Source of the DNA: an uncultured Anaerolineaceae bacterium
GTDB lineage: Bacteria > Chloroflexota > Anaerolineae > Anaerolineales > DRMV01
DNA length: 64,000 nucleotides
Assembly: GCA_964435005.1 (NCBI GenBank)
Contig: CAYSXA010000001.1
Coordinates: 2,237-66,236 of the forward strand
Direction: 5' to 3'
The translations under genes and the position numbers were made by a program. Numbering within the stretch: position 1 is the first letter of the stretch; every line of letters starts with the position of its first letter. Below the pieces are notes generated by a model, which saw nothing but the letters and a program-made list of their open reading frames with translations, was not told the DNA's origin and did not search any database. This document shows, in pieces, positions 19,424 through 42,492 of this stretch.

Positions 19424-19435
19424 GGGAGGTAAACC

Positions 19436-20602
19436 GTGTCCAAAGAAGTTGTCATCGCAGGCGTCGGACAGACGTCATTGGGCGAGCATTGGGATTTCTC
19501 GTTGCGTGAACTGGCCTTTCATGCGGTGGAAGCTGCGATGCAAGATGCCGGCGGCATCCGCCCACAGGCGGTGTTCGTGGCGAACATGCTGGCCTCGGTG
19601 CTCTCTCACCAGGGGCATCTTGGCGCGTTGATCGCCGACTTCGCCGGGCTGTGGGGTGTGGAAGCTATGACGGTGGAGGCCGCTGGCGCTTCTGGCGGGG
19701 TGGCTTTTCGGCAGGCGTTGCTGGCGGTGGCCTCGGGCGCAGTGGATGCGGCGCTGGTGGTCGGCGTGGAGAAACTCACCGACCAGGTCGGCTCGCGGGT
19801 GGATGCGGCCAAGACCATTATGCTGGACAGCGATTATGAATCTGTGCAGGGCGTCACACCGTCGGCGCAGGCGGGGATGCTCATGCGGCGTTACATGTAC
19901 GAGTACGAAGTGCCGCGTGAGGCGTTCGCTGGTTTCCCCATCGTGGCGCATGAGAACGGCGTGCACAATCCAAATGCCATGTTCCGCCGTGCGATCAGCG
20001 AGAAAATCTACCAGCGCGCACCACTTACCAGTGATCCGCTCAATGTTTTTGACGAAGCCCCGGATGCGGATGGTGCAGCGGCGGTGCTGCTCACCCGCCG
20101 CGACTTGCTACCGCCAGAATTCTCGCATCCGCTGGTGGGGGTGGCAGGCTCCAATGTGAGCACGGATACGCTGGCGTTGCATGACCGCCCGGATATGCTG
20201 CGGCTGCGTGCGGCGGAGCGCTCGGTGCAGATCGCCTGCCAGCAGGCTGGCCTGAAGCCAGAGCAGGTGGATCTGTTTGAACTGTACGATGCGTATTCGA
20301 TCTACGCAGCGCTATCGCTGGAGGCCGCGGGCTTTGCGGCGGCTGGCAGAGGGTGGGAACTGGCGCAGAACGGCGCGCTGCGCCGCGATGGGAGCATCCC
20401 GATCTGCACTTTCGGCGGACTGAAAGCACGTGGCAACCCGGGTGGCGCGACAGGGGTATATCAGATCGTGGAAGCTGCGTTGCAACTGCGCGGAGAGGCC
20501 AACGAGAACCAGGTCGAAGGCGCGCGTACTGCGTTAGTGCAGTGTTTTGGCGGCCTGGCATCCACCGTGGCGACGCACGTATTGGCCCGCCTGGAAGATT
20601 GA
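19436..20602 (+). CDS. Thiolase (archaeal-type acetoacetyl-CoA thiolase partner of HMG-CoA synthase)
   Basis: 388 aa thiolase fold (VVIAGVGQT, VEAAGASGG, C-terminal CTFGGLKARGNPGGATG). GTG start after GGGAGG. Confidence 0.8.
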   Translation: MSKEVVIAGVGQTSLGEHWDFSLRELAFHAVEAAMQDAGGIRPQAVFVANMLASVLSHQGHLGALIADFAGLWGVEAMTVEAAGASGGVAFRQALLAVASGAVDAALVVGVEKLTDQVGSRVDAAKTIMLDSDYESVQGVTPSAQAGMLMRRYMYEYEVPREAFAGFPIVAHENGVHNPNAMFRRAISEKIYQRAPLTSDPLNVFDEAPDADGAAAVLLTRRDLLPPEFSHPLVGVAGSNVSTDTLALHDRPDMLRLRAAERSVQIACQQAGLKPEQVDLFELYDAYSIYAALSLEAAGFAAAGRGWELAQNGALRRDGSIPICTFGGLKARGNPGGATGVYQIVEAALQLRGEANENQVEGARTALVQCFGGLASTVATHVLARLED

Positions 20603-20641
20603 TAGTTTCTGATAGCTTCGCAGGCATACACTTCAGGCCGT

Positions 20642-20673
20642 TAGTAAGATCCTTGATTAGTAAGATCCTTGAT
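20642..20673 (+). repeat. Perfect tandem duplication of a 16-nt unit TAGTAAGATCCTTGAT
   Basis: Units at 20642-20657 and 20658-20673, in the AT-rich spacer before the DUF35 gene SD. Confidence 0.9.
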
Positions 20674-20690
20674 GAGGAAGGAGTGCAACA

Positions 20691-21095
20691 ATGGAGATTC
20701 CACGCCATTGGAGATTGAAAAAGCAACGTTACGCATTGGTGGGCGAGGTCTGCCCCCACTGCGATGCCAAAATCTTCCCCCCGCGTGATGTGTGCCCGGA
20801 GTGTGGCCAGGAGGCGAAGACGGACTACCAGTTCAGCGGTCGCGGGGTGGTGTATTCCTATACCCATGTGTACATGAACGCACCGGAGGGTTATGCCGGG
20901 GATGCGCCGTACACCGTGGCACTGGTCAAACTGGATGAGGGAACGATGGTTACAGCTCAACTCACCGATCTGGATGGGCGTGAGGTGGAAATCGGTATGC
21001 CGGTTGAAATGGTCACTCGCCGGCTGCGCTCCGACGGGGATGAACGCGGAATGCTGGTGTACGGTTACAAGTTCCGCCCGGTGCTGGTAGGTTAA
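20691..21095 (+). CDS. DUF35 Zn-ribbon/OB-fold protein (scaffold of the thiolase/HMG-CoA synthase complex)
   Basis: CPHCDAKIFPPRDVCPECG zinc ribbon followed by an OB-fold-like C-terminus. 134 aa. Adjacent to the thiolase. Confidence 0.8.
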   Translation: MEIPRHWRLKKQRYALVGEVCPHCDAKIFPPRDVCPECGQEAKTDYQFSGRGVVYSYTHVYMNAPEGYAGDAPYTVALVKLDEGTMVTAQLTDLDGREVEIGMPVEMVTRRLRSDGDERGMLVYGYKFRPVLVG

Positions 21096-21391: not shown

Positions 21392-23173
21392 ATGACCGAG
21401 AACATTCTGGTATCCGTCGCCTGGCCCTATGCCAATGCCTACATCCATGTGGGCAATCTGACCGGTGCATATTTGCCAGCGGATATCTTCGCCCGCTATC
21501 ATCGCCTGGCAGGGAACCGCGTGATCATGGTCTCTGGCTCCGATGCCCACGGCACGCCGATCACCGTGCGCGCGGACGACGAGGGCACCACGCCGCTGGA
21601 GGTCTATCAACGCTACCATGCCAGTTTCCTGGAACTCTTCCAGAAATTAGGGCTGGCTTACGATCTGTTCACCACCACACATACAGAGAATCACTTCCGT
21701 GTATCGCAGGCCATCTTCCTTGCGTTGCGAGAGAACGGCTATCTGTACCGGGATACGCAGAAGCAGTGGTATTCGCCCACAGAAGGCCGTTTTCTGCCCG
21801 ACCGGTACGTGGAAGGCACCTGCTACATTTGTGGCTACGAGGGCGCACGCAGCGACCAGTGCGATAAGTGCGGCAACCTGCTCGACCCGGAAAAGCTGAT
21901 CAACCCGCGCACCAAGACCGATGGCTCCACCCCGGAATTGCGTGAGACGGAGCATTTCTTCCTCGACCTGGGCAAATTGCAGGACTTTGTGGTGGATTTC
22001 CTGCGGCAGCGTGAGCACTACTGGCGTCCGAACGTGCTGCGCCAGTCGTTGGGGCAGATCGAGAAGGAACCGCTGCGTGGGCGTCCGATCACCCGCGATC
22101 TGGAGTGGGGTATCCCAGTGCCGGTGGAAGGATGGGAGGAAAAGCGCCTTTATGTGTGGTTCGAGGCGGTGATTGGCTATCTCTCGGCCTCGATTGAGTG
22201 GGCGCACCTGGCCGGCGATCCGCAGGCCTGGCATGCCTGGTGGTACGAGCCGGCACGCGCTTTTTACTTCATCGGTAAAGATAACATTCCTTTCCATGCG
22301 ATCATCTGGCCGGCGCAACTGTACGGAGCAGGTGAGGCCTTCGACCGCCTGTTCGAGAACGGGCCGGGACGCCGGCTCAACCTGCCTTACGATGTGCCGG
22401 CCAATGAGTTCATGAACCTGGAAGGGCGCAAGATCTCCGGCAGCCGCAACTGGGCGGTGTACGGCCTGGACTTCCTCTCGCGCTACGACCCCGACCCTCT
22501 GCGCTACTACCTGACCGTGACCATGCCCGAAACGCGCGACAGCGACTGGGATTGGGCCGACTTCCTGCGCCGCAACAATGACGAGCTGGTGGCTACCTGG
22601 GGGAACCTTGCCAACCGGATGCTTTCTTTTGCCTACAAGCACTGGGAAGGGCGTGTGCCGCAGCCGGGCGCACTGGACGAGCGGGACCGCGAACTGCTGG
22701 CGCAGATCGAGAAAGGCTTTGAGACCGTGGGGGCCGAGATCGACGCTGTGCACCTGCGTGCGGCGTTGAACGAGACCATGCGGCTGGCAGGTGAGGTCAA
22801 CCGCTACCTGGATCAGAAAGCTCCCTGGTTCCAGATCAAGGAAGATCGACAGGCTGCAGCGACCACGGTGTACGTGGCGCTGCGGGCGATCGACTCGCTC
22901 AAGGTGCTGTTTGCCCCCTTCCTGCCGCACAGCAGCGAGCGGCTGCACACATACCTGGGGTACACCTCCCCGATGTTCGGTGAGCAGGGGGTGGAGACGG
23001 TGGAAGATGGGCTGGGTGAGCACACCGTGTTGCGTTACTACCCCGAGAAAGCCACCGGGCGCTGGGCGCCAAGCGACCTGCCTCCGGGGCAGCCGCTGCA
23101 AAAGCCGAAACCGCTCTTCCGCAAACTCGATCCTTCAATCGTCGAAGAAGAGCGAGCCCGATTAGGAAATTAA
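21392..23173 (+). CDS. metG: Methionyl-tRNA synthetase
   Basis: SVAWPYANAYIHVGNL (HIGH-type), Zn knuckles CYICG...CDKCG, KISGSRN (KMSKS-type). SD GGAGGA plus ATG 21392. Confidence 0.93.
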   Translation: MTENILVSVAWPYANAYIHVGNLTGAYLPADIFARYHRLAGNRVIMVSGSDAHGTPITVRADDEGTTPLEVYQRYHASFLELFQKLGLAYDLFTTTHTENHFRVSQAIFLALRENGYLYRDTQKQWYSPTEGRFLPDRYVEGTCYICGYEGARSDQCDKCGNLLDPEKLINPRTKTDGSTPELRETEHFFLDLGKLQDFVVDFLRQREHYWRPNVLRQSLGQIEKEPLRGRPITRDLEWGIPVPVEGWEEKRLYVWFEAVIGYLSASIEWAHLAGDPQAWHAWWYEPARAFYFIGKDNIPFHAIIWPAQLYGAGEAFDRLFENGPGRRLNLPYDVPANEFMNLEGRKISGSRNWAVYGLDFLSRYDPDPLRYYLTVTMPETRDSDWDWADFLRRNNDELVATWGNLANRMLSFAYKHWEGRVPQPGALDERDRELLAQIEKGFETVGAEIDAVHLRAALNETMRLAGEVNRYLDQKAPWFQIKEDRQAAATTVYVALRAIDSLKVLFAPFLPHSSERLHTYLGYTSPMFGEQGVETVEDGLGEHTVLRYYPEKATGRWAPSDLPPGQPLQKPKPLFRKLDPSIVEEERARLGN

Positions 23174-23177
23174 GGCA

Positions 23178-23212
23178 AAGTGTGACGCACCCCAAGGGTG
23201 CGTCACACTTTT
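23178..23212. terminator. Bidirectional terminator between metG and the convergent DUF212 gene
   Basis: 15-bp perfect stem AAGTGTGACGCACCC / GGGTGCGTCACACTT, loop CAA, T-run after it. Confidence 0.85.
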
Positions 23213-23675
23213 ACCGCCAGATCACATACCCCACCTGAGCTACCGCCAGACCCAGGATCACCCCGCCGAGGGCTTCCAGCGGTGTATGGCCGAGCACTTC
23301 ACGGAGTTGTTTTTGATGCTCCTGCCGCAGCGGATGCCCACTCGCCAGATCTCTGATCATAGCGTTGATCAATTCGGCATGCTTCCCTGCCTGGCGGCGG
23401 ATGCCGGTCGCGTCGTAGATCACGATCATCGCGATGGCCACGGCCAGCCCGAACAGTGGCGAATCGAAGCCATGGTACAGCCCGATAGCATGTGCCGTTG
23501 CCGTGACCAGCGCGGAGTGCGAACTGGGCATGCCGCCGGCGCTGAGCAGCATCGCCCAGTTCCAGCGGCGGCTGGTGAAGTACCCCAACGGCACTTTGAG
23601 CGCCTGGGCCAGCCCCCAGGCGATCAGCGCCAGGATCAGGACGTGGTTGTGGAAAATTCCATAAAACGCATTCAT
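23211..23675 (-). CDS. DUF212 / divergent PAP2 (acid phosphatase/vanadium haloperoxidase-related) membrane protein
   Basis: GGMPSSHSALVTA... and IVIYDATGIRRQAGKHA motifs typical of the YuiD/DUF212 family. 154 aa, 4 TM. Confidence 0.8.
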   Translation of the reverse strand: MNAFYGIFHNHVLILALIAWGLAQALKVPLGYFTSRRWNWAMLLSAGGMPSSHSALVTATAHAIGLYHGFDSPLFGLAVAIAMIVIYDATGIRRQAGKHAELINAMIRDLASGHPLRQEHQKQLREVLGHTPLEALGGVILGLAVAQVGYVIWR

Positions 23676-23845
23676 GGTTTCTCGTGGATGATTGGTAACC
23701 AGAATAGAAGTGTGTGTCCTTTAGAGACTGGATGATACTCAGACAATGGCGGTGCCTCTTTGAGGGGCAGCAGTCGCTGGCGCTATTTGCTTACGTGCGC
23801 GATGGTAGGCTTGCCAGAGCAGTGAAGGCAAGCGGGTGGATGAAC

Positions 23846-24210
23846 TCATTCAGCGGTGGGGAGCCGGAGAACAATTTGCCGAAAATGGGTGCGATGAAGA
23901 ACAAAGGCAGGGTTGTTGTGGAAAAGCGATTTCATGGCACTGCTCCCTGAGTTGAGTTTGCGGCCTGGGTGTGGGGGTATTGTGCACTGCCCAGCCGTAA
24001 AGTCCAGCAGGTTGTCTGGGCGCGGGTGGGTGCCCAGCACGTCCAAATGAGCTGGGACCTCTCCAGGAACCATGCTCCGCTCGTGGGCCGCTCAGTACCA
24101 GTACTTGCGCGGTTGCGCGATTGTTCACCACGTAGGCGCAAAGTGCACAGATGAGGTAAAAAGCCCGTTTTTCTCTGCGTTCCCGGCGTTTCCAGCGGTG
24201 AAGCGGTCAT
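23846..24210 (-). pseudogene. Possible frameshifted/truncated remnant of a CoA-transferase beta subunit
   Basis: ATG at 24210, 27 nt after the alpha-subunit stop. Fragments in three frames weakly resemble beta-subunit N-termini (..ICALCAYVVNN..QVLVLSG.., ..LGTHPRPDNLLDFTAGQ..). A5/T5 homopolymers at 24158-24172. No intact ORF in the 560-nt gap. Confidence 0.3.
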
Positions 24211-24236
24211 GGACCACGGGTGATGCGTAACTTCTG

Positions 24237-25142
24237 TCAGTACCCGAAATCCACCGGCGCGGAAGGGGCGGGATGTCGGATGCGGAGCGCATCCAGCCGC
24301 GCCGCGCCCAGGCGGGCCAGGTAGGCTTCCCAATCGCCGCCGAGCACCCAGGTCTCCAGCCAGCAGGCGAAATCCTGCGCTGTGCGGCTCTGGTCGCGGT
24401 ATTCCAGAAAGGCGCGGTGGTCGCGGTTGTAGCAGCCGGGAACGGGCGAGGGGTGCGCTCCCCAGGGGACTTCCGCCACCGCACACACCTTCCAGTTCGG
24501 GAAGGGTATGCGGTTGGGGTCGGAGCGGATCACCTCGTCGGACACGATTTCTTCGCAGGTGATCAGCACGCGGTCGGCGGCCAGGGCAGCTTCGCGGCAC
24601 ATGCCCAGGTTGCCCCACAGATGGACGTTGCCCCGACGGTCGGCGCGCTGTACGTGCAGGATGGTGACATCCGGGCGCAGTGCCTGCACCGCAAGCAGCA
24701 ACTCCTCGTTGAAGGGATCGCGCATTATCTTTAGATGGGGGTTGGTTTGCGGCAGGTCGCTGCCCAGCGCGCTGCGGGTAGGCAGGAAGGGCAATCCCCA
24801 GGCTGCTGCACGCAGGGCCATCGCCAGCAGCAGATTGGAGTAATCCACCACCTGGATCTGACCGCTTTCCGCCGCGCGGCGGAAGTTGTAGGCCGATCCA
24901 GTGATCACATTGCCCACCCAGGCGGCGTGCACCGCGCGCACGCACCCCGCGCCGATCAGTTGATCGAACAGCATGTCCGAGATCGGGGCAATCAGCGTGA
25001 GGTCGCGTTTACCCTGGCGGATGATCTCGTGCCCGGCGGCGAAGGGGATCAGTGTTTCCTGCGCCATCCCCAGCGCCACCGCGTCGCCATCGCGGACGTA
25101 GCGGGCGATGGCTTCTGAAAGCGGAAGCACTTTGTCACTCAT
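24237..25142 (-). CDS. Class I CoA-transferase alpha subunit (glutaconate/3-oxoacid CoA-transferase A-like)
   Basis: MSDKVLPLSEAIARYVRDGDAVALG..., RADRRGNVHLWG..., about 300 aa. Start ATG at 25142 (ORF-track start at 25187 is less likely). Divergent from the BCR-like operon. Confidence 0.75.
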   Translation of the reverse strand: MSDKVLPLSEAIARYVRDGDAVALGMAQETLIPFAAGHEIIRQGKRDLTLIAPISDMLFDQLIGAGCVRAVHAAWVGNVITGSAYNFRRAAESGQIQVVDYSNLLLAMALRAAAWGLPFLPTRSALGSDLPQTNPHLKIMRDPFNEELLLAVQALRPDVTILHVQRADRRGNVHLWGNLGMCREAALAADRVLITCEEIVSDEVIRSDPNRIPFPNWKVCAVAEVPWGAHPSPVPGCYNRDHRAFLEYRDQSRTAQDFACWLETWVLGGDWEAYLARLGAARLDALRIRHPAPSAPVDFGY

Positions 25143-25357
25143 GCGGTTTCCATGTGGTGGTGTTCTGCGTCGCGCATCTCGTGGCATAGCAACTGGTCAA
25201 CTTCGGTCTTGAGAAGCATATCACGAAATTTGATGCTGTGGGGGACTTTGTGGGGCGTCGGTCGCTGAACGGTACCAGGCGCGCCACTCGGCTACGCTCA
25301 TGAAGCGCGTATTCTTGCGCGGTATCACGCTGCTCTGGCTTGCTGTCTTCTTTATCG

Positions 25358-25415
25358 TGAAAAATGTCACTTTGTTGACAAACCGGTAAATCTGTGTATA
25401 CTGAAAATGTCTCAC
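25358..25415 (+). promoter_or_regulatory. Candidate operator repeats bracketing the promoter of the BCR-like operon
   Basis: TGAAAAATGTCAC (25358-25370) and TGAAAATGTCTCAC (25402-25415), plus inverted TGTCA/TGACA (25365-25369 / 25376-25380) overlapping the -35. Confidence 0.35.
25375..25402 (+). promoter_or_regulatory. Sigma-70-type promoter of the BCR-like/aromatic supercluster
   Basis: TTGACA (25375-25380), 16-nt spacer, TATACT (25397-25402). AT-rich divergent intergenic region. Confidence 0.6.
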
Positions 25416-25462
25416 TATTTCATACGGTCGCTGAAAAACCGACGCATAAACAGGAGATGTCT

Positions 25463-26629
25463 ATGACGGTCACCGTATTCGACGCCTGGCAGGGGAAAGA
25501 CCTCGACGAGGTGATCCACCTGTGCCGGGAGTTGTTGGAAGATATGTCCTTCCCCACCGTGCGGCGCTGGCGGGAGGCCGGTGGCAAGGTGCTGGGGCAC
25601 TTCCAGGTGTACTTCCCGGAGGAGGTCGCTCACGCGGCCGGGATGTTGCCGTTCAAGGTGCGCGGCGCGCCGGTCGAACCGATGCAGGCCGATTCGCGTT
25701 TCGGCTCCTACCTGTGTTCTATCCTGAAAACTTCGCTGGAGATCGTGCTGCGCGGCTGGGTGGAACTGGACATATTCGTCACCCACCCGATCTGTGACGC
25801 GGCCCGCAACCTGGCGGCCATCTGGGGACGCAATTTCGACTATCCCTGCGAAATCCTCTACCTGCCCCAGAACGCCAATTCCGCCTACGCGGTGGAGTAT
25901 CTGCGAGGCGAGTACGAGCGGGTGCTGCACGAGTGTGAGCGTATCACTGGCCAGCGAGTGACCGAGGATGACCTGCGGCGCTCGCTGGCGGTGTTTAACC
26001 GCAACCGCGCTTTGATCCGCCGGCTATACGAGATCAAGCGCGAACAGCCCTGGCTGCTGGCGGTGGACGAGGCCTATACCCTGATCTCCGTGGGTGGCAT
26101 GATCCCGCGCGAAGAGCATAACGCCATGCTCGAGGCCGTGATCCCGATGATTGAGGCCCGCCAGGCGCGTCCACAGGACAAAATGCGTGTGGTCTTCGAG
26201 GGTGGTTTCTGCGAGCAGCCCCCGCTGGACTTCCTGACCGTGATCGCCCGCTCCTGCTACGTGGTGGACGACGACCTGATGGTGGGGCTGCGCTGGATCA
26301 CCGAAGATGTGCCGCTGGAGGGCGATCCGCTGCTCAATCTGGCAGAGGCGTACATCGATAAATCGCTCTACAGTCCGGTGCAGCACGACGCGCGCAAGCC
26401 CAAAGAGGCCATGCTGTTGAAAAAGATGCGCGACAGCCGCGCCGGGACGGCCATCGTCGCCGCCGCCAAGATGTGCGAGCCTGGCCTGGAAGATCAGGTG
26501 GCCTATACCCATGCTCTGGACAAGGAGGGGCTGCCCTTCTTTGTCACCGAATTCGAAGAGAACATGACCAGTTTCGACCACCTGGAGATCCAACTGGAGA
26601 CCTTTGTGGAAAACCTGCTGTTTGCGTGA
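25463..26629 (+). CDS. BcrC/BadD/HgdB-family subunit of a benzoyl-CoA-reductase-like / 2-hydroxyacyl-CoA-dehydratase-like enzyme
   Basis: LSFPTVRRWREAGGKVLGHFQVYFPEEVAHAAGMLPF, a family-typical N-terminus. SD AGGAG plus ATG 25463 (ATG 25457 is an alternative). Confidence 0.8.
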   Translation: MTVTVFDAWQGKDLDEVIHLCRELLEDMSFPTVRRWREAGGKVLGHFQVYFPEEVAHAAGMLPFKVRGAPVEPMQADSRFGSYLCSILKTSLEIVLRGWVELDIFVTHPICDAARNLAAIWGRNFDYPCEILYLPQNANSAYAVEYLRGEYERVLHECERITGQRVTEDDLRRSLAVFNRNRALIRRLYEIKREQPWLLAVDEAYTLISVGGMIPREEHNAMLEAVIPMIEARQARPQDKMRVVFEGGFCEQPPLDFLTVIARSCYVVDDDLMVGLRWITEDVPLEGDPLLNLAEAYIDKSLYSPVQHDARKPKEAMLLKKMRDSRAGTAIVAAAKMCEPGLEDQVAYTHALDKEGLPFFVTEFEENMTSFDHLEIQLETFVENLLFA

Positions 26630-26641
26630 AGGAGTAGAGGC

Positions 26642-27928
26642 ATGGCGAAATCAGAAAACGGTCTGGTAGGTCGTGGCAACCGCGAGGGCGCAGCGTTGTT
26701 CCGGCAGTGGTTCGCAGATCTGACCCAACGGGCGGAGCGAAATGAGGGCGCAGCATACGTGTTCGTGATGGGCAGTATGGCCGAGATCCTGCGCGTGTTC
26801 GACCTGCCGACCGTGTTCCCCGAAATCACCTCGCTGCAAACCGCCGTGCGCCATGTGGCGCATGAGTATCTGAGCGCTGCGGAGGACTACGGTTATTCGC
26901 CGGACATCTGCGGCTACGTGAAGGCCGATATTGCATTGCAATTGCGTGGCGGCGAGCACCCCATGGGCAAGGTGCCGCGTCCCATGATTGCTGTGGCGAC
27001 TAACGCTTGCAACACCTACATCAAATGGGGTGAGGCCTGGGAGCGCATGTACAAGGCCCCGCTCTTCGTGCTGGATGTGCCTGCCACGCGGCGCGGCGGC
27101 GCGCAGACCTGGCCAGGCGATCCTGGCTTTGAGCGCGACCGCCGGTACGTGGAAGGTCAACTGCGCGAACTGATTGCCCTCTGTGAAGAAGTCACCGGCA
27201 AGAAGTTCGACATCGACCGCCTGCGCGAGATTCTGGGCTACGCCAATCGCATGAACAAGAACTGGGCACGCGTGCTGGAACTCAACCAGAGCGTGCCCAG
27301 TTTGTTCAACGCCCTGACCGACGGCACCATCTATCTGGGCGTCTCCAACGCCTTTCGCGGCACGCACGAGGGTGCGGAGTTCTTCGAGCGCCTGGTGGAG
27401 GAGATGGAGTACAAGGCCGCCAACGGCATCGGCACCCTGGTGGATGAGAAGTACCGGCTCACGTTCGTGGGTGTGCCATGTTACCCCATCTTCCGTCGCT
27501 TCAATGAACTGTTTACCGAATGGGGCGGCACGTTTGTGGTCTCTACGTATCTGATGTTCGCTTCTGGCGGGGCCAACATGGGCTTTGAATACAACCTGAA
27601 CCGCCCGCTGGAAAGCCTGGCCGAAGGTGTGTTGATCAGCGTGCGCGATGCGATGGATAGCATGTTCCACCAGGATCAGGTGGTGCTGCGCACGCTGGAT
27701 TCTTACAAGATCGACGGTGTGGTGTACCACCCGATCAAGAGTTGCCGTACCGTGTCCACTGGCCTGGCCGACGGGCGGCGCGCGCTGCTGGAATCTCGCG
27801 ACGTGCCCAGCCTGTTCATCGAATCGGACATGATGGATCGGCGGGTGGTCTCCGAAGCGCAGTTGAAGAACCGCATTGACGCCTTCTTCGAGGGGCTGGC
27901 GGCGCGCAGGGCCGCTGCGCTGGCCTGA
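26642..27928 (+). CDS. BcrB/BadE/HgdA-family subunit of the same enzyme
   Basis: 428 aa paralogous fold (..[11 protein letters not shown].., ..[10 protein letters not shown].., ..CNTYIKW.., ..[12 protein letters not shown]..), immediately downstream. Confidence 0.8.
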
Positions 27929-27948
27929 TTTCACCCAAGGAGGATTGT

Positions 27949-28755
27949 ATGGCGTACGCAGCCGGAGTGGATGTTGGTTCCACCCAAACCAAAGCCATTA
28001 TTTTAGACGAGAAACGCAACATCGTGGGGCAGGCGCTGATCGACACTGGCTCCAACGTGATGTTGGCGGCGCAGAAAGCCTTCCGCAATGCGCTGGCCTC
28101 GGCGGATATCCGCGAGGAAGAGGTCGAGTACGTGATTGGCACCGGATATGGTCGCTACCGTGTGACTTTTGGCAACACCCAGGTCACCGAGATCAGTTGC
28201 CATGCACGCGGCGCGGTGCACATGTTCCCTAACACGCGCACGGTGCTCGATATGGGCGGACAGGATACCAAAGCCATTCGGGTGAACGAAAACGGCGAAA
28301 TTCTGGATTTCTGCATGAACGACAAGTGTGCGGCGGGTACCGGGCGCTTCCTGGGCGCGGCGGCAACCGCGCTGGAGATCCCCCTGTCCGAACTTGGCCC
28401 CACTGCGCTGCATTCCGAGAAGCCGGTGCGCATCAGCACCACCTGCACTGTGTTCGCCGAGTCGGAGGTGCTTTCCTGGCTGGGTAAGGGCAAGAAGATT
28501 GAAGACATCCTGTGGGGGGTACACCTCTCCATCGCCTCGCGCTCCATCGGTCTGCTGCGCCGGGTGGGCATCGAGGAGGAGGTCACTTTCACCGGCGGCG
28601 TGGCGAAAAACAAGGGGATGGTCGCGGCGCTGGAACAGGGCCTGGGGGTGAAACTGAACGTCAATCCGCTGTCGCACTTTATGGGTGCGTTGGGCGCGGC
28701 GTTGTTCGCCCTGGATCACATCCTGCTCAGGCGACAGCCTCAGCGCTCGGCCTGA
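27949..28755 (+). CDS. BcrAD/BadFG/HgdC-type ATPase (electron-activating subunit 1)
   Basis: [17 protein letters not shown] (ASKHA N-terminus). Cluster-ligating Cys motifs [12 protein letters not shown] and [11 protein letters not shown]. Confidence 0.88.
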
Positions 28756-28776
28756 CGCCGCATCGGGAGGTTGCAG

Positions 28777-29610
28777 ATGACTTTGACCGCTGGAATAGAT
28801 GTGGGATCCACCTACACCAAAGCCGTGATCCTGGATGACGAATTTCGCATCCTGGGTAAAGCGATGACCAAAACCGGCTTTCAACTGGAAAAGGCCGCCG
28901 AGCGTGCGCTGCTGGGGGCGCTGGACGACGCCGGCGCGCACCGTTCGGATGTGGAATACCTCGTGGCTACCGGCTTTGGCCGCCACCAGGTTTCCTTCCG
29001 CGATGTGAACGTGACGGACATGACTGCCTGCGCCTGGGGCGCCACGCACCTCTTCCCGCGCACGCGCACCATCCTGGATGTGGGCGGGCAGACGATGAAG
29101 GCCATTCGCCTGGGCGACGGTCGGCGGGTGAAATCCTTCCGCCTGAACGACAAGTGCGCCGCTGGCACGGGCGCCTTCCTGGAGAAGACCGCCCGCTACA
29201 TGGGCTACACCACGGAAGAGATCGGTCCGCTGGCCTCCACTTCGAAAGAAGAAGTGCCTATCTCCGGCGTGTGCGCCGTGTTCGCCGAATCCGAGGTGAT
29301 CAATCACCTCTCGCAAGGCGCAGCGCCGGCGGACATCATGCACGGAGCGATCACCGCGCTGGTCAGCCGTTCGGTGCAGTTGATGAAGCGCGTGCGCATG
29401 GAGCCGGAAGTCACGCTGCTGGGCGGCATCCTGCGCTTCGAGACCATGGCTGGCGTGGTGCGGCAGAGCCTGAAGCTGCCGATCAACGTGCCGCCGGGCG
29501 ATATGCCGCAGTTCGTGGCCGCGATGGGCGCGGCTATCCTGGGCCAGCGGCGGCTGCGTAAGCTACGCGCCGGACAGTCGGTGGCGGCCGGAGGCGCTCA
29601 TGCCGTCTGA
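28777..29610 (+). CDS. BcrAD/BadFG/HgdC-type ATPase (electron-activating subunit 2, divergent paralogue)
   Basis: [49 protein letters not shown] plus ATG 28777 (TTG 28771 is an alternative). Confidence 0.88.
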   Translation: MTLTAGIDVGSTYTKAVILDDEFRILGKAMTKTGFQLEKAAERALLGALDDAGAHRSDVEYLVATGFGRHQVSFRDVNVTDMTACAWGATHLFPRTRTILDVGGQTMKAIRLGDGRRVKSFRLNDKCAAGTGAFLEKTARYMGYTTEEIGPLASTSKEEVPISGVCAVFAESEVINHLSQGAAPADIMHGAITALVSRSVQLMKRVRMEPEVTLLGGILRFETMAGVVRQSLKLPINVPPGDMPQFVAAMGAAILGQRRLRKLRAGQSVAAGGAHAV

Positions 29611-29851
29611 TTTGCCGCCCTTTCCCCAGGCGGACTTTGAACCTGACCCCCGCCTGGTGGCTGAGGGTTGGGAGCGGCGCTTTATGGCCGACCCGCAGCG
29701 CGCTCAAGAGGTCCGGGAGATGTTCCTCGCCATGGGTTTCGAGGTGCGGCTGGAGCCGGTGCGCCGCGCTGAGTTCGATGATCTGTGTCAGGACTGCGCG
29801 TTGAGCGCTGAATGTTTGAACTACGTTACCGTCTACGTGCGCAAGAGGTGA
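29600..29851 (+). CDS. Small (83 aa) conserved-looking hypothetical protein with a C-x2-C-x5-C motif
   Basis: SD GGAGG plus ATG 29600, overlapping the ATPase stop by 11 nt. Sequence ..AEGWERRFMADPQRAQEVREMFLAMGFEVRLEP..LCQDCALSAEC..VYVRKR. I do not recognise the family. Confidence 0.6.
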   Translation: MPSDLPPFPQADFEPDPRLVAEGWERRFMADPQRAQEVREMFLAMGFEVRLEPVRRAEFDDLCQDCALSAECLNYVTVYVRKR

Positions 29852-29854
29852 TCT

Positions 29855-30784
29855 TTGACAAAACAACGTCCCACCGTCCAGACTCAGTTCCTGATCTTCA
29901 CCCTGTTTGGCGACTACATTCTGCCGCGTGGAGGCGAGGTCTGGACATCCAGTTTGTTGTATCTGCTGAATTTGCTGGGCGTCAGCGAACGTGCGGCGCG
30001 ATCCACCCTTTCCCGCATGAGCCGCAAGGGGTGGGTGAAGGCCCATCGACAGGGGCGGCGCAGCCGGTATTCACTCACCGAGCGCGGGCGCGCTCTGCTC
30101 AAAAGCGGCGAGCGCCGCATCTTCGAGCCGTTGTACACGGATTGGGATGGCCGCTGGTTCGTGGTGATTTACTCCTTGCCCGAATCCATGCGCGACGCCC
30201 GTCACCAACTGCGTCAGAACCTGATCTGGCTGGGCTTTGGGGCGCTCTCGCCGGGTACCTGGATCTCGCCCCACGACCGGCGCGCCGACCTGGAGCGTTT
30301 GCTGGACGACCTGCAGGTGCGTGAGTACGTGGAGATGTTCGTCGGGCGGCATCTGGGCAACGCCAGCGACCGCGAGATGATCCGCCGATGTTGGGATCTG
30401 GACGGCCTGGTGGAGCAGTATCGTCGCTTCATCGAGCGCTACCAGCCCGAATACGAGCAGTGCGCGATGCCGGGCAACGGCGAGCCGGACATCCCGCCGG
30501 AGGTTTGCTTTGTGCGCCGTTTCTGGTTGACGCACGAGTTCCAGTCTTTCCCCCTCAAAGACCCCAACCTGCCCGTGGCGCTCCTTTCGCCGGACTGGGT
30601 GGGCTTTCGCGCCCGGCGGCTGTTCGAAGAGTACCGCGCCCTGCTGAGCACCAAAGCCAATGCCTTTGTGGATGCGGTGATGAACGGGGAGCACGAAGCC
30701 GTCCCGGCGGTGCAAACGCTGGAGGAAAACCGTCTGGAAGGTTCGTGGCGCATCAGCCCTATGGGGCCGGATGGCTCGCCCTAG
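29855..30784 (+). CDS. paaX: PaaX-family transcriptional regulator (phenylacetyl-CoA-responsive repressor family)
   Basis: QFLIFTLFGDYILPRGGEVWTSSLLYLLNLLGVSERAARSTLSRMSRKGW...RYSLTERG is characteristic of the PaaX N-terminus. TTG start after AAGAGG. Confidence 0.85.
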   Translation: MTKQRPTVQTQFLIFTLFGDYILPRGGEVWTSSLLYLLNLLGVSERAARSTLSRMSRKGWVKAHRQGRRSRYSLTERGRALLKSGERRIFEPLYTDWDGRWFVVIYSLPESMRDARHQLRQNLIWLGFGALSPGTWISPHDRRADLERLLDDLQVREYVEMFVGRHLGNASDREMIRRCWDLDGLVEQYRRFIERYQPEYEQCAMPGNGEPDIPPEVCFVRRFWLTHEFQSFPLKDPNLPVALLSPDWVGFRARRLFEEYRALLSTKANAFVDAVMNGEHEAVPAVQTLEENRLEGSWRISPMGPDGSP

Positions 30785-30796
30785 AGGAGGGGCGTT

Positions 30797-31573
30797 ATGC
30801 AGGAATCCGCACAGGCTACCTTTGTAAAGACTACGGTGGAAGACGGCTTCGCGCGGCTGACGCTGAACCGCCCACCGTTGAACGTGCTGCACATCCCCAT
30901 GTTGCAGCAACTGGATGAAGCGCTGCGCGCGCTGGCGGCGGATGATTCAGTGCGCGTGCTGGTGCTGGACGCCGAGGGAAAGATGTTCTCCGCTGGCGTG
31001 GACGTGGCCGACCACACCGAGGACAAAGTGGGCGAGATGATTCCGCTGTTCGACCGGGTGTGCCGCACGCTGGCGGATTTTCCGGTGCCGACGCTGGCGG
31101 CGGTGCACGGTCACGCGTTGGGCGGCGGCTGCGAGCTGGTGCTGTGCTGCGACCTGGCGGTGATGGTCGAGGGCGCGCGCATCGGACAGCCGGAGGTGCG
31201 CCTGGCGGCGCTGGCGCCGGTGGCGGCCCTTCGTTTGCCGTTGTTGGTGGGGTACCGTGCCGCCGCCGACCTGCTGTTCAGTGGGCGCACGCTGACCGCG
31301 CAAGAGGCGCTGGAGATCGGCCTGGTGAACGCAGTGGTGCCGCCGGAGGAGTTGAGCGGTTGGGTGGAGGGCAAAGCCGCCGGGATCGCTGCGCTCAGCC
31401 GTGCTGCGTTGCGCCTGAACAAACGCGCGCTGCGCCTGGGATACAAGGATTGGACAGCGCGCTTCCCGGAGATGGAGCGCCTCTACCTGGAGGAATTGAT
31501 GTCCACCGAGGATGCCCGTGAGGGCCTGAGCGCCTTCCTGGAGAAGCGCGAACCGGTCTGGAAACACCGTTGA
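30797..31573 (+). CDS. Enoyl-CoA hydratase/isomerase (crotonase) family protein
   Basis: LNRPPLNVL, FSAGVDV, ALGGGCELVLCCD, C-terminal EDAREGLSAFLEKREPVW. 258 aa. Confidence 0.88.
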   Translation: MQESAQATFVKTTVEDGFARLTLNRPPLNVLHIPMLQQLDEALRALAADDSVRVLVLDAEGKMFSAGVDVADHTEDKVGEMIPLFDRVCRTLADFPVPTLAAVHGHALGGGCELVLCCDLAVMVEGARIGQPEVRLAALAPVAALRLPLLVGYRAAADLLFSGRTLTAQEALEIGLVNAVVPPEELSGWVEGKAAGIAALSRAALRLNKRALRLGYKDWTARFPEMERLYLEELMSTEDAREGLSAFLEKREPVWKHR

Positions 31574-31601
31574 GGTTCCGTTCAGTTGAGGAGGAATGAT
31601 C

Positions 31602-32090
31602 ATGGCACGCGGTTTGACGTTCGACGAGTTCGAAGTCGGCGCCCGCTACATCTCGCAAGGACGCACGGTCACCGAGGCCGACGTGGTGGCCTTCGCCGGT
31701 CTGTCGGGTGACTTCAATCCCCTGCACACCAATGCCGAATTCGGACGCCAGACGCCTTTCGGGGAGCGCATCGCCCACGGTATGCTGATCGTCGCCATGG
31801 CGACCGGCATGGCGAACTGGACGGGCATCTTCGAAGGCACCACGCTTGCTCTGATGGAGCAGGTGATCCGCTACAAGGGGGCGGTGAAGTTCGGCGACAC
31901 CGTGCACCTGGAACTCGAAGTGCTGGACAAGCGCGAGACCTCTAAACCCGACCGGGGGGTGGTGCGCTTTGCCGCGCGTGTGCGCAACCAGCGTGACGAG
32001 GTGGTGGTGGACGGCGAATGGACGCTGCTCATGCGGCGGGAACGACCCAAAGAGACCGTGACCGGAGGGGAACATGTTGCTCAAGGATAA
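31602..32090 (+). CDS. MaoC-like (R)-specific enoyl-CoA hydratase / hot-dog dehydratase
   Basis: FAGLSGDFNPLHTNAEFGRQTPFGERIAHGML motif. ATG 31596 is an alternative start. Confidence 0.85.
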   Translation: MARGLTFDEFEVGARYISQGRTVTEADVVAFAGLSGDFNPLHTNAEFGRQTPFGERIAHGMLIVAMATGMANWTGIFEGTTLALMEQVIRYKGAVKFGDTVHLELEVLDKRETSKPDRGVVRFAARVRNQRDEVVVDGEWTLLMRRERPKETVTGGEHVAQG

Positions 32091-32841
32091 AGTTGCCATC
32101 ATCACAGGCGGCGGCAACGGCATTGGCCGCGCCACCGCGCTGCGCTTTGCCCGCGAAGGTGCGAAGGTGGTGATCGCCGACCTGGACGCCGAAGGGCTGG
32201 AAGGCAGCCGCCAGGCCATCGAGGAGCAGGGCGGTGAGGTGCTGGTGTTGGAGGTCAACGTCACCCGGCGTGAGGATGTGCAGCGCATGGTGGATGCCAC
32301 CGTGGAGCGCTTTGGCCGGCTGGACATCCTGATTAACAACGCAGGCATCACCCGTGACGGCCTGACCACACGCATCAAGGACGGCGAAGTGAAGTTGATG
32401 AGCGATGACAAGTGGGACGCGGTGCTGGCTGTCAACCTGAAGGGAACCTGGCTGTGCTCGCAACTGGCCGCCGTGCCCATGATGCAGCAGAAATACGGGC
32501 GCATCGTCAACACCGCCTCGGTGGCTGCGCTGGGCAACATCGGTCAGGCGAACTACTCAGCCTCTAAAGCCGGCGTGATCGGCCTGACGCGCACGCTGGC
32601 GCTGGAATGGGCGCGCTACAACATCGCGGTGAACTGCATCGCGCCCGGTGGCGTGAAGACGCGCATGACCGCCGCTATCCCCGAAAAGATCATGGCAGGG
32701 TTGCTCCAGAAGATTCCCTATCGGCGCATGGCCGAGCCGGAGGAAATTGCTGCGGTACACGCCTTCCTGGCGAGCGATGAGGCCTCTTACATCACCGGTC
32801 AGGTCATTTTTGTGGACGGCGGCCTGACTGTGGGCGCCTGA
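32074..32841 (+). CDS. Short-chain dehydrogenase/reductase (FabG / 3-hydroxyacyl-CoA dehydrogenase-like)
   Basis: TGGGNGIGRA, NNAGI, S..YSASKAG catalytic motif. 255 aa. Overlaps the MaoC gene end. Confidence 0.88.
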   Translation: MLLKDKVAIITGGGNGIGRATALRFAREGAKVVIADLDAEGLEGSRQAIEEQGGEVLVLEVNVTRREDVQRMVDATVERFGRLDILINNAGITRDGLTTRIKDGEVKLMSDDKWDAVLAVNLKGTWLCSQLAAVPMMQQKYGRIVNTASVAALGNIGQANYSASKAGVIGLTRTLALEWARYNIAVNCIAPGGVKTRMTAAIPEKIMAGLLQKIPYRRMAEPEEIAAVHAFLASDEASYITGQVIFVDGGLTVGA

Positions 32842-32853
32842 CGGGAGGCGATT

Positions 32854-34062
32854 ATGGCTATGGAACATTCATACATTCCTTACGGCGGCTACTGGTGTAC
32901 GCCGTTCGTCAAGTGGCAGGGGAACTTCGCCAACCTGCATCCGGTGAAGTTCGCCGCCGAGGTGACCCGCCGTGCTCTGCAAGATCGCGACATCCCGCCA
33001 GATACGTTTACCAACCTGTACTTCGGCATGACCGTGCCGGCGAAACACTCCTTTTACGGCGCGCCGTGGCTGGCGGCTATGATCGGCGCGGAGGGCATCA
33101 CTGGCCCGGTCTTCTCGCAGGCCTGTGCCACCTCGGCGCGCGTGATCGGCAGCGCAGCGCACGCTGTAGAGAGTGATCGTGCGGAGCAGCCTGTCATTCT
33201 GTGCATCACCGCAGACCGCACTTCCAACGGCCCGCACATCGTGTATCCCAACCCGCTCAACCCCGGAGCGCGCGGCGACGCCGAAGACTGGGTGTGGGAT
33301 AACTTCAACTTCGACCCCTATGCCCGCAACAGCATGCTCCAGACCGCCGAGAACGTGGCGCGGGAGTACCACATCACCACCGAGGAACAGCACGAGGTGG
33401 TGCTGATGCGCTACGCGCAGTACCAGCAGGCGTTGGCGGACGGTGCCGCCTTCCACAAGCGGTACATGGTCACGCCCATTGAGGTCAACCCCTCCGGGCG
33501 CAGGGTGATGGCGACCGTGGCCGACGACGAGGGCGTGTTCCCCACCACGGCAGAAGGGCTGGCGCGGCTGAAACCGGTCTTGCCAGACGGCACGGTGACC
33601 TTTGGTGGGCAGACCTATCCCGCCGATGGCAATGCGGGCATGATCATCACCACACGCGATCGGGCGCGCGAACTCAGCCGCGACCCAAACATCGAAATCC
33701 GCCTGCTGTCCTTTGCCGAAGGGCGCACGCAAAAGGGATACATGCCCAAAGCGAACGCCCCGGCGGTGCGTAAGGTGCTCGACCGCGCAGGCATCTCGCT
33801 CAAGGACGTGAAAGCCATCAAGACGCACAACCCCTTCGCGGTGAACGATGTGTTCCTCAGCCGTGAACTGGGCATCCCGCTGGAAGGGATGAACAACTAT
33901 GGATGCTCGCTGATTTGGGGACATCCCCAGGGGCCAACCGGTATGCGCCTGATCATTGAACTGATCGAGGAACTGGTGCTGCTGGGCGGCGGATATGGCC
34001 TGTTCACCGGCTGCGCGGCAGGCGACACGGCGGCAGCGGTGGTGCTGCACGTCCAGGTGTGA
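32854..34062 (+). CDS. Thiolase-family acyl-CoA acetyltransferase
   Basis: 402 aa. Active-site-like SQACATSARV and C-terminal GLFTGCAAGDTAAAVV. Confidence 0.8.
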   Translation: MAMEHSYIPYGGYWCTPFVKWQGNFANLHPVKFAAEVTRRALQDRDIPPDTFTNLYFGMTVPAKHSFYGAPWLAAMIGAEGITGPVFSQACATSARVIGSAAHAVESDRAEQPVILCITADRTSNGPHIVYPNPLNPGARGDAEDWVWDNFNFDPYARNSMLQTAENVAREYHITTEEQHEVVLMRYAQYQQALADGAAFHKRYMVTPIEVNPSGRRVMATVADDEGVFPTTAEGLARLKPVLPDGTVTFGGQTYPADGNAGMIITTRDRARELSRDPNIEIRLLSFAEGRTQKGYMPKANAPAVRKVLDRAGISLKDVKAIKTHNPFAVNDVFLSRELGIPLEGMNNYGCSLIWGHPQGPTGMRLIIELIEELVLLGGGYGLFTGCAAGDTAAAVVLHVQV

Positions 34063-34069
34063 GGCACAC

Positions 34070-34525
34070 ATGGCGAAGCCCAAACCCACGCCCTTTCGCT
34101 ACTACACCACCGTACGGGTGCGTTTTAGCGACACCGACGCGCAGGGCCACGTCAATTTCGCGCAGCACTACAACTACTTCGATGAGGCGCTAACCGGCTA
34201 CCTGCGCGACGCGCTGGGCTACGGCTACTCCCAGCTGCTGGCCGACGGCCTCGACCTGCTGTACGCCGCCTCTCAGGCCGATTATCACTCCCCGGCCTAC
34301 TTCGAGGAGACCCTGCGGGTGCATTGCCGCCTGGCGGAGATCGGCAACTCGTCCATGCGCTTCGAATTTCAGACCTTCGCCGAGACCGACGACCGCCTGA
34401 TCGCCACCGGCAGCATCGTCACCGTGATGGCCGAACGTCAGACCTGGAAAAAGGTCCGCGTCCCCGACCGCATCCGCGAAGCCAACGAACGCTGGCTGGC
34501 GGGTGAGGGACCACCAAACCAATGA
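34070..34525 (+). CDS. 4HBT/YbgC-type acyl-CoA thioesterase (hot-dog)
   Basis: VRVRFSDTDAQGHVNFAQHYNYFDEA is a typical 4HBT N-terminus. ATG 34070. Confidence 0.8.
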   Translation: MAKPKPTPFRYYTTVRVRFSDTDAQGHVNFAQHYNYFDEALTGYLRDALGYGYSQLLADGLDLLYAASQADYHSPAYFEETLRVHCRLAEIGNSSMRFEFQTFAETDDRLIATGSIVTVMAERQTWKKVRVPDRIREANERWLAGEGPPNQ

Positions 34526-34548
34526 ACCGCTAAACTGGCAAACCAACC

Positions 34549-35571
34549 ATGAAAGCAGCCGTATTTTACGAAGCCGGAAAACCTCTGCGAATCGAAGAGG
34601 TTCCCACCCCGGAGCCTGGGGAGGGAGAGGTGCTGATCAAAGTGGCCGCCTGCGGGCTGTGCCACACCGACTTGCACTACATCGACCACGGCGTGCCGAC
34701 CTTCAAGCGGCCGCCCATCATCCTGGGGCACGAGGTCTCCGGGCAGATCGCCGCGCTGGGCAAAGGCGTGAGCGATTGGAAGGAAGGTGACCGTGTGCTG
34801 GCGCCTGCTGTCTACGGTTGTGGACAGTGTCGCATGTGCCGCACCGGGCGCGAGAACATCTGCGAGCGCATGGTGATGTTCGGCAACCATGTGGACGGCG
34901 GCTACGCGGAGTACATGCTCGCGCCCGCCAAAGACGTGATCCCCCTGCCGGAGGAAATCCCGCTGGTAGAGGGCGCGATCATTGCCGACGCCACCACCAC
35001 GCCCTACCATGCGGTGGTCAATCGCGGCCAGGTGCAGCCCGGCGACCAGGTGGTGGTCTTCGGGTGCGGCGGCATTGGCCTGAACCTGGTGCAGGTTGCC
35101 GCGGCGATGGGCGCGCGCGTGATTGCGGTGGACATCCTGGATCAGAAGCTGGAATGGGCGCGGGAACTCGGCGCGCAGGCCACCGTGAACGCCAAAACCG
35201 TGGAGCGCGTGGATAAGGAAATCCGCAAGCTGACCGGTGGCGGCGCGGACATCGGCTTCGAGGCCATTGGCAACCCGATCACCCAGGAGCAGACCTTCAA
35301 GTCGCTGCGCACCGGCGGGCGTTTCGTGGTGGTCGGTTACGCCGACAAGCCCATGCGCCTGGACAGCGGGCGGGTGATGTTTCGCGAGATGGAGATCATC
35401 GGCTCGCTGGGTTGCCGCGCGGTGGACTACCCGCGGGTGATCGAACTGGCCCGCCAGGGCAAGATCAAGGTCAAGGAACTGGTTACCGCCCGCTTCCCGC
35501 TGGACGAAATCAACGCCGGGCTGGACGTGCTACGCAGCGGGGAGGGCATCCGTTCGGTGGTGGTGCCGTGA
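34549..35571 (+). CDS. Zn-dependent medium-chain alcohol dehydrogenase
   Basis: [15 protein letters not shown], structural Zn [21 protein letters not shown] Rossmann. 340 aa. Confidence 0.88.
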
Positions 35572-36446: not shown

Positions 36447-36477
36447 GAGAGGTGACTCTCACCTGAGGAGGTATTGG

Positions 36478-38226: not shown

Positions 38227-38238
38227 GGAGGTGCGAGC

Positions 38239-38829: not shown

Positions 38830-38839
38830 GAGGAGACCC

Positions 38840-42482: not shown

Positions 42483-42492
42483 GAGCCTTGTC

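Follow-up and report, generated by a model that had tools for sequence, protein, structure and literature searches.

A probable ATP-dependent class I aryl-CoA reductase, related to 3-methylbenzoyl-CoA reductase, encoded by an Anaerolineae bacterium

The DNA analysed here is a 64,000-nt stretch from an uncultured bacterium (hereafter the window, meaning that stretch as a whole), and the subject of this analysis is a row of four genes at positions 25463-29610. Together, these genes most probably encode a heterotetrameric (γ-β-α-δ) ATP-dependent class I aryl-CoA reductase, from a clade that adjoins 3-methylbenzoyl-CoA reductase (MBR). The reaction of ATP-dependent benzoyl-CoA reductases (BCRs) is a biological counterpart of the Birch reduction, and these enzymes control how lignin-derived and pollutant aromatics are degraded under anaerobic conditions. 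Class I reductases are divided into BCR, MBR and BZD types (PMC11971306), and on the comparisons below the enzyme of the window reads as an MBR-like class I reductase with the gene order γ-β-α-δ.

All four open reading frames (ORFs) lie on the forward strand and are separated by gaps of 12-21 nt. The first two encode members of the Pfam family HGD-D, namely the γ subunit (MbdN/BcrC-like, 388 aa, 25463-26629, 204 bits), which is predicted to be the electron-transfer partner of the catalytic dimer, and the β subunit (MbdO/BcrB-like, 428 aa, 26642-27928, 213 bits), which is predicted to be the substrate-binding active-site subunit. These are followed by two ATPase genes of the Pfam family BcrAD_BadFG, encoding α (MbdQ/BcrA-like, 268 aa, 27949-28755, 230 bits) and δ (MbdP/BcrD-like, 28777-29610, 183 bits); the latter has 277 aa, or 279 aa if started at the upstream TTG at 28771. 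Independent gene calls on three metagenome contigs with an identical γ protein (P0001) gave the same four lengths. The motifs NDKCAAGTG and CTVFAESEV are found in α, and NDKCAAGTG and CAVFAESEV in δ, i.e. both ATPases have the two cluster-binding Cys motifs (NDKCAAGTG-x-FL and C-x-VFAESEV) for a bridging [4Fe-4S] cluster, and both also carry the ASKHA nucleotide-binding motifs DVGST and D(M/V)GGQ. As their mutual identity is only 44%, α and δ are truly distinct ATPases. The ORFs and Pfam matches agree well with the original prediction, which had described two BcrB/C-HgdA/B genes followed by two different BcrA/D-HgdC ATPases, with both Cys motifs in each ATPase and sizes of about 389, 428, 268 and 278 aa. 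Its proposal of a class-I-BCR-like four-subunit enzyme with a heterodimeric ATPase module is likewise supported, by the presence of two distinct ATPases and by the MBR matches that follow.

The four proteins were compared with all chain sequences in the PDB, where MBR has been solved in the entries 9g87, 9gai, 9gal and 9gba. Each subunit gave a full-length, one-to-one best match to a solved MBR subunit, with E-values of 1e-163 to 1e-90 that exclude a chance match. For γ the best match was MbdN (9g87_B, 548 bits, E 1.7e-163, residues 5-387), and for β it was MbdO (9g87_A, 532 bits, E 9e-159). The α ATPase matched MbdQ with 424 bits (9gai_D), ahead of the HgdC activator (245 bits) and MbdP (183 bits), and δ matched MbdP with 307 bits (9gai_C), ahead of MbdQ (191 bits) and HadI (168 bits). 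The next-best families outside Mbd reached 121, 115, 245 and 168 bits for γ, β, α and δ, respectively. Components of 2-hydroxyacyl-CoA dehydratases scored 115-245 bits against the subunits of the window, and BzdN and BzdO scored 86 and 101 bits against the catalytic pair. By BLASTP, γ is 60.5% identical to MbdN and β 54.1% identical to MbdO; identities are 26-27% between the catalytic subunits and HadC/HadB, and about 25% between γ and BzdN. The genes are thus orthologous to those for MBR, and because the Mbd matches are far stronger than any others, we assign the enzyme to the MBR/Thauera lineage of class I reductases, and not to the bzd type or to the dehydratases.

The NCBIfam models for BcrC and BcrB are the best equivalog models for γ and β (251 and 206 bits), but all four Thauera-type models score far below their curated cut-offs (TIGR02263, 251 against 421 bits; TIGR02260, 206 against 487; TIGR02259, 226 against 578; TIGR02261, 135 against 313). 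As the characterised MbdN and MbdO also fall below the cut-offs of the BcrC and BcrB models, with 230 and 221 bits, we see these low scores as a property of the MBR lineage and not as a sign of another function. The match of α to the BcrA model spans only profile positions 226-432, leaving the N-terminal half of the model unmatched. A tblastn comparison with annotated plasmid reference genes found only relatives of less than 30% identity, and yielded no BcrC reference.

Set beside the characterised systems, the gene set shares with MBR (MbdONQP) the short α ATPase of about 268 aa, all of the conserved γ and β Cys residues and the same NCBIfam score profile. It differs from MBR in gene order, which is N-O-Q-P in the window, the mbd order in Aromatoleum sp. 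CIB being O-N-Q-P. With Thauera BcrCBAD it has in common the order γ-β-α-δ and the best catalytic models, BcrC and BcrB, and from it the set is separated by the low scores and by an α subunit without the N-terminal half of the BcrA model. The bzdNOPQ genes are instead arranged γ-β-δ-α, the opposite order of ATPases to that seen here. In the published description of the family, such an enzyme is a permanent heterotetramer in which electron transfer is coupled to the hydrolysis of ATP (PMC11971306).

The original prediction had also seen a likeness to the Azoarcus-type bzdNOPQ arrangement, which did not hold. BzdN and BzdO scored 86 and 101 bits in the PDB search and 88 and 104 bits with NCBIfam, compared to 548 and 532 bits for MbdN and MbdO, and none of the cut-offs of the BzdN, BzdO and BzdQ models was reached (88 against 454, 104 against 449 and 202 against 380 bits). 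The cluster ligands point the same way. What the window does share with BzdNOPQ, for which a BzdNO structure is available (PDB 8s02), is the class I architecture and the three β Cys ligands of the active-site [4Fe-4S] cluster: β Cys90, Cys123 and Cys368 align with BzdO Cys95, Cys128 and Cys380, and are conserved without exception across 65 relatives and MbdO. In BzdO, these residues are the ligands of the catalytic aqua-[4Fe-4S] cluster (PMC11971306). In γ, Cys85, Cys111 and Cys338 are kept in 100% of 80 relatives and make up a set common to HadC and BzdN, but Cys36, Cys263 and Cys293 of BzdN are replaced by Gln48, Met273 and Ser304, and only three of the six Cys residues of the BzdN [8Fe-9S] double-cubane cluster are retained. 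To judge from these residues, γ resembles MbdN and HadC rather than BzdN. An Azoarcus-type (bzd) assignment was ruled out by the scores, the gene order and the cluster ligands taken together.

The retention of a HadC-like three-Cys set in γ is a reminder that the 2-hydroxyacyl-CoA dehydratases (HadBC with HadI, HgdAB with HgdC) belong to the same BCR/HAD radical superfamily, with the same folds and the same Pfam families, HGD-D and BcrAD_BadFG. In addition, a family-I CoA-transferase α-type gene (24237-25142/25187, reverse strand; Pfam CoA_trans, 93 bits) lies 275 bp upstream of the reductase genes on the opposite strand, and the original prediction had taken this gene to keep the dehydratase alternative open. 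On that reading, the genes would encode a dehydratase with its activator, served by the neighbouring CoA-transferase and acting in amino-acid fermentation, which we regard as barely credible. Dehydratases use a single homodimeric activator and recycle one electron (PMC11971306), whereas the window has two distinct ATPase genes, orthologous to MbdQ and MbdP. Scores on the HadB and HadC models (148 and 156 bits) stay far from the cut-offs (750 and 700), and the 26-27% identity to HadC/HadB compares with 54-60% to the Mbd proteins. The CoA-transferase gene has no partner for a β subunit, the next 560 bp (23676-24236) holding no credible ORF, tRNA or Rfam match, and it is linked to the reductase in none of the 80 related loci introduced below. 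Moreover, the host is a respiring organism, and no gene for a 2-hydroxyacid dehydrogenase was seen. A dehydratase with CoA-transferase was ruled out on these grounds, and at the level of sequence that reading appears effectively refuted.

The position of the enzyme within its family was assessed using the β subunit, with a search that covered 1.84 billion cluster representatives (50%-identity clusters). A neighbour-joining tree was then calculated for 160 sequences, comprising the window, 65 β subunits from metagenome-assembled genomes (MAGs), MbdO, HadB and 92 full-length representatives. The window and the 65 MAG sequences form an exclusive clade, whose nearest neighbours are MbdO and two representatives (P0121 and P0122). 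The smallest clade with both the window and MbdO takes in 69 of the 160 sequences and no other cluster representative, with the window in a separate 66-member subclade. Identity of β between the window and its clade relatives is 69-79%, and MbdO is 51-56% identical to all of them. The tree is indicative only, as it comes without support values and without BcrB or MbrB references; the BcrB cut-off was reached by none of the ten 50%-identity representatives tested with NCBIfam, and Thauera BcrB is not placed relative to the clade. Within those limits, the tree suggests that the enzyme belongs to a clade adjoining characterised MBR and is not nested inside it.

Relatives of γ are numerous, with 6212 database matches at E <1e-20. 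The best 120 of these have identities of 72% or more and lengths of 385-398 aa, in nearly every case 388 aa. Among GTDB species-representative genomes, 221 stretches encode a γ relative, and the best 80 of these (γ identity 65-76%; nearly all from MAGs or uncultured isolates) were compared as loci, numbered here with the prefix L. By their record titles, these best 80 loci come from Chloroflexota and Gemmatimonadota (17 each), Eisenbacteria (10), Planctomycetota (8), Marinimicrobia/Fidelibacterota (7), Acidobacteriota (5) and Elusimicrobia (3), with 13 other or unclassified. Synteny is conserved, the order γ-β-α-δ being kept in all of the approximately 60 related loci that reach far enough. 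The original prediction had placed the enzyme in a lineage not classically tied to ATP-dependent BCR, but this is outdated, both by the 17 Chloroflexota among the best 80 loci and by earlier reports of a complete bzd-type set in the Chloroflexi single-cell genomes DscP3 and Dsc4 in 2017 (PMC5736913) and of bcr genes in Anaerolineae and Dehalococcoidia MAGs in 2019 (PMC6472368). The window resembles these earlier examples of class I BCR in its phylum and in its Dch/Had-type neighbours (PMC5736913; PMC6472368). It differs from the single-cell genomes, which have Azoarcus-type bzdNOPQ and belong to strict anaerobes with the Wood-Ljungdahl pathway (PMC5736913), in that its enzyme is MBR-like and its host respires, with alternative complex III. 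What we describe is therefore a known enzyme type, in a phylum already known to have class I BCR, and no new enzyme type. This highly conserved relative of MBR is nevertheless the common form in many uncultured phyla, namely Chloroflexota, Gemmatimonadota, Acidobacteriota, Planctomycetota, Eisenbacteria and Marinimicrobia, suggesting that oxygen-independent aromatic ring reduction is widespread far beyond the proteobacterial model organisms. The solved structure of MBR is a good template for the enzymes of the clade, and the points of note in the window are the conserved 83-aa gene after δ, the PaaX-type regulator and the variant downstream module without Oah, all of which are described below.

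A working scheme can be drawn up by analogy with the family. A single [4Fe-4S] cluster, to which each of the two ASKHA-fold subunits α and δ contributes two Cys residues, would bridge this pair, and the pair would take an electron from reduced ferredoxin. Hydrolysis of ATP would then drive the electron, at very low potential, via the γ [4Fe-4S] cluster (Cys85/111/338) to the active-site [4Fe-4S] cluster of β, which would be held by Cys90/123/368 and a non-protein ligand. At this site, benzoyl-CoA or a close ring-substituted analogue would be reduced to cyclohexa-1,5-diene-1-carbonyl-CoA, for subsequent hydration by a Dch-like enzyme and oxidation by a Had-like enzyme, while the neighbouring IorAB may regenerate reduced ferredoxin. 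We infer the substrate, the ATP coupling and its stoichiometry and the electron donor in this scheme, as well as the operon structure discussed below.

The genes downstream of the reductase, all on the forward strand, offer candidates for these later steps. A crotonase of 258 aa (30797-31573) is a candidate cyclohexa-1,5-diene-1-carbonyl-CoA hydratase (Dch-like), with the dienoyl-CoA hydratase model TIGR03189 as its best NCBIfam match. It is followed by a MaoC-type hydratase (31596-32090; Pfam MaoC_dehydratas), an SDR dehydrogenase (32074-32841; Pfam adh_short_C2) and a thiolase (32854-34062; Pfam Thiolase_N/C), which would make up a β-oxidation-like module with a role in oxidation of 3-hydroxypimelyl-CoA or similar. 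Next come a 4HBT-family acyl-CoA thioesterase (34070-34525, 151 aa; Pfam 4HBT_2 and 4HBT) and a Had-like Zn-dehydrogenase (34549-35571; NCBIfam TIGR03201, dearomat_had), which shares 39% identity with the bona fide Had encoded in L008, described below. The row continues with a protein of the Amidohydrolase_2 family (35568-36446, 292 aa; PF04909, 152 bits), present at the same position in L034 with 71% identity. It then reaches the 2-oxoacid:ferredoxin oxidoreductase IorAB (36421-38829; NCBIfam), in which IorA has a 2x[4Fe-4S] domain and scores 667 bits on TIGR03336 (IOR_alpha), above the cut-off of 650.9, and IorB scores 227 bits on NF005322, below the cut-off of 237. A HMGL-like synthase and then an ABC uptake system follow IorAB in the block. 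Homologues of the Dch-like gene flank the reductase in 41 of the 80 loci, homologues of the Had-like gene adjoin it in 41 of 80, and IorAB homologues are linked to it in about ten related loci. In Thauera, 2-oxoglutarate:ferredoxin oxidoreductase regenerates the electron donor, and this similar role makes it plausible that IorAB would supply electrons here.

That the clade dearomatises benzoyl-CoA-type substrates is indicated most strongly, if indirectly, by the Had/Oah context of the relatives. The Gemmatimonadota locus L008, whose γ subunit is 73% identical to ours, has genes for a bona fide Had (482 bits on TIGR03201, cut-off 338.65) and a bona fide Oah (566 bits on TIGR03200, cut-off 464.45) immediately upstream of the reductase. 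An SDR, a thiolase and a Dch-like crotonase are also found upstream in L008, along with a 150-aa ORF after the thiolase that has no NCBIfam hit and carries a DUF35 label by position only. Across the loci we see two alternative downstream modules, i.e. canonical Had with Oah (21 loci), or a variant Oah-like protein that is usually accompanied by a variant Zn-ADH (20 loci).

Several results weigh against our assignment, or bear on how far it can be taken. Of the pathway genes to which the original prediction had pointed (Dch, Had, Oah and ferredoxin), the 64-kb window contains the first two only as Dch-like and Had-like candidates, both below the cut-offs (186 bits against 292.5 for TIGR03189, and 259 bits against 338.65 for TIGR03201). 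No Oah, Oah-like gene or remnant was found there by tblastn, which matched only the Dch-like gene, and neither a stand-alone ferredoxin gene nor a benzoate-CoA ligase above cut-off was found in the same 64 kb. At the active site, the counterpart of BzdO His131, a residue that contacts the cluster-bound catalytic water, is Tyr126 in the window and likewise Tyr in each of the 65 relatives, whereas MbdO has Phe here, so active-site details differ. Because the clade adjoins MBR and is not nested in it, with 51-56% β identity, the substrate range of MBR is not simply transferable. Lastly, the clade appears to consist of uncultured members, for which enzyme activity is a prediction.

Some of these points would suit an enzyme of the same class that acts on another aryl-CoA, or on a partly reduced bicyclic carboxyl-CoA, and not on benzoyl-CoA or its methyl or halo derivatives. 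In such a case the variant MaoC, SDR, thiolase, thioesterase and Zn-ADH would process a different dearomatised product. The separation of the clade from characterised MBR, the Tyr found in 65 of 65 relatives, the sub-equivalog scores of the Had-like and Dch-like proteins and the missing Oah can all be read in this way, as can the PaaX-type regulator and the arylacetate-type genes (IorAB and PaaK) around the cluster. We consider a substrate of this kind unlikely, since reductases with 66-73% identical γ subunits adjoin bona fide Had and Oah in the 21 loci mentioned above. The nearest characterised enzyme reportedly also reduces benzoyl-CoA, in work by Tiedt et al. from 2018.

The main gap in the benzoyl-CoA-type pathway is the missing Oah, which is held to be highly conserved among anaerobic benzoate degraders (PMC5742626); the gene may sit elsewhere in the genome. 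The comparison with sister Chloroflexota is instructive here. The MaoC/SDR/thiolase block is kept in seven Chloroflexota loci, mostly from Anaerolineales/Promineifilaceae (L006, L007, L014, L015, L019, L021 and L035), as is the whole block from the reductase to the Had-like gene, and these seven MAGs carry an Oah-like gene between paaX and dch (detailed for L014, with a hit placed alike in the other six). The Oah-like crotonases of sister Chloroflexota have about 350 aa and score 212-235 bits on TIGR03200, below the cut-off (e.g. L014 15270-16319 and L034 8915-9970). In the window, the gap between paaX and dch is only 12 nt (30784-30797). The absence of the gene found in sister Anaerolineales (L014, L007, L015, L021 and others), with no remnant in 64 kb, could indicate that the reductase is intact but that its pathway is incomplete or decaying, the ring-opening hydrolase having been lost and growth on aromatic acids with it. 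This seems quite improbable to us: the block consists of 13 genes that are all open and show the high third-position GC typical of the genome (0.77-0.83), the identical gene arrangement occurs in three independent metagenome assemblies, and the hydrolase could lie elsewhere in a genome that we view through 64 kb only.

The reading of the block as an aryl-CoA reductase operon also draws on its spacing and its signals. Intervals within the block range from an 11-nt overlap to a 23-nt gap, and no convincing forward-strand terminator was found in it before 36446. Upstream of γ lies a σ70-type promoter-like site (25375-25402, forward strand; TTGACA, 16 nt, TATACT) that agrees with the consensus at 11 of 12 positions; no other strong site of this kind was found within 23000-41000. 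Its function as a promoter is suggested by the consensus match only. The single strong promoter-like site, the gene spacing and the lack of a convincing terminator would be consistent with a single operon.

Directly after δ, and overlapping its stop codon by 11 nt, is a gene of 83 codons (orf83, 29600-29851, forward strand), which is a candidate accessory component and has no counterpart in the MBR comparison. Pfam and NCBIfam scans of orf83 assigned no family. The gene is found directly 3' of δ in most of the approximately 60 related loci that reach that far, in at least seven phyla (43 loci at the comparison threshold; e.g. L008 14108-14440 and L019 14284-14613), and 38 of 38 homologues are annotated as hypothetical or left nameless. 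The conserved core reads DP..A.GW.RR....R..E...LY...G.EV...C..C...YTR, with invariant residues that include G23, W24, R27, F28 and C63-x-x-C66, and no Cys other than these two is invariant. An AF2 model (pLDDT 72) shows alternating helices and strands, and a comparison of this model with PDB folds gave no match with E <1.

The next gene encodes a PaaX-family regulator of 309 aa (29855-30784, forward strand; Pfam PaaX, PaaX_M and PaaX_C), which scores 244 bits on NCBIfam TIGR02277, below the cut-off of 264.55. Proteins of this family normally act as phenylacetyl-CoA-responsive repressors, and the regulators of proteobacterial BCR/MBR clusters are of the BzdR, MbdR or BadR type. A PaaX-type regulator is thus a further difference from the mbd cluster, which has the TetR-type MbdR, as are the absence of a ferredoxin gene from the cluster in the window and the host, which is one of the Anaerolineae and not one of the Betaproteobacteria. 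The paaX gene adjoins the reductase genes in 11 related loci, from Chloroflexota (including Caldilineaceae and Ardenticatenales) and Terriglobia. A search of the promoter region for a PaaX-type operator palindrome gave nothing convincing. One might go further and propose a distinct subtype of class I reductase, in which orf83, with its CxxC motif, is a fifth component, e.g. an electron-entry or assembly factor that replaces the cluster ferredoxin, a PaaX-type protein serves as aryl-CoA sensor in this Anaerolineae lineage, and ring opening by MaoC, thiolase and thioesterase takes the place of Oah. We offer this as a tentative idea that is rather unlikely to be right.

The host is an Anaerolineae bacterium, as the best named hits of the RpoD encoded in the window are from Bellilinea/Anaerolineaceae (66-67% identity); the original prediction of a Chloroflexota-like host is borne out by the same protein. 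An alternative complex III is encoded at 662-7085 (forward strand), with a multihaem cytochrome, a molybdopterin-family subunit, an FeS subunit, NrfD, ActD and a cytochrome c, and a 781-aa multi-domain c-type cytochrome at 10320-12665 (forward strand). From alternative complex III and the several c-type cytochromes, we conclude that the host respires. Class I BCRs usually occur in facultative anaerobes (PMC11971306), and a respiring host fits this pattern.

Elsewhere in the window, a mevalonate-type row at 17046-21095 (forward strand) encodes HMG-CoA reductase, an HMG-CoA-synthase-like protein, a thiolase and a DUF35/ChsH2-type OB-fold protein, with the thiolase/HMGS/DUF35 genes in archaeal-style order. 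Rfam and tRNA scans found no RNA genes in the window. Downstream, the region 36421-52577 (forward strand) contains two IorAB copies, two PaaK-like aryl-acetate-CoA ligases, a branched-chain-type ABC uptake system, the HMGL-like synthase and an aldehyde:ferredoxin oxidoreductase. By its gene content, this region is an arylpyruvate/arylacetate module adjoining the reductase operon. In the Gemmatimonadota loci L008, L017 and L022, the reductase is likewise followed by HMGL and IorAB. Finally, two forward-strand ORFs join genes that would be expected to be separate. In the ORF at 45486-48200, a LivF-type ABC ATPase is joined in-frame to IorA with no stop between them (junction ...TAYLGRRRDHPRV...SEPMKRALMSGNEA), and in the ORF at 54124-56466 a FadD-like acyl-CoA ligase is joined in-frame to a LeuD small subunit (junction ...AYLSERVRLRGRAWKFGANVDTD). 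Genuine fusions, the loss of a stop codon or errors in the assembly could each account for these joined ORFs.

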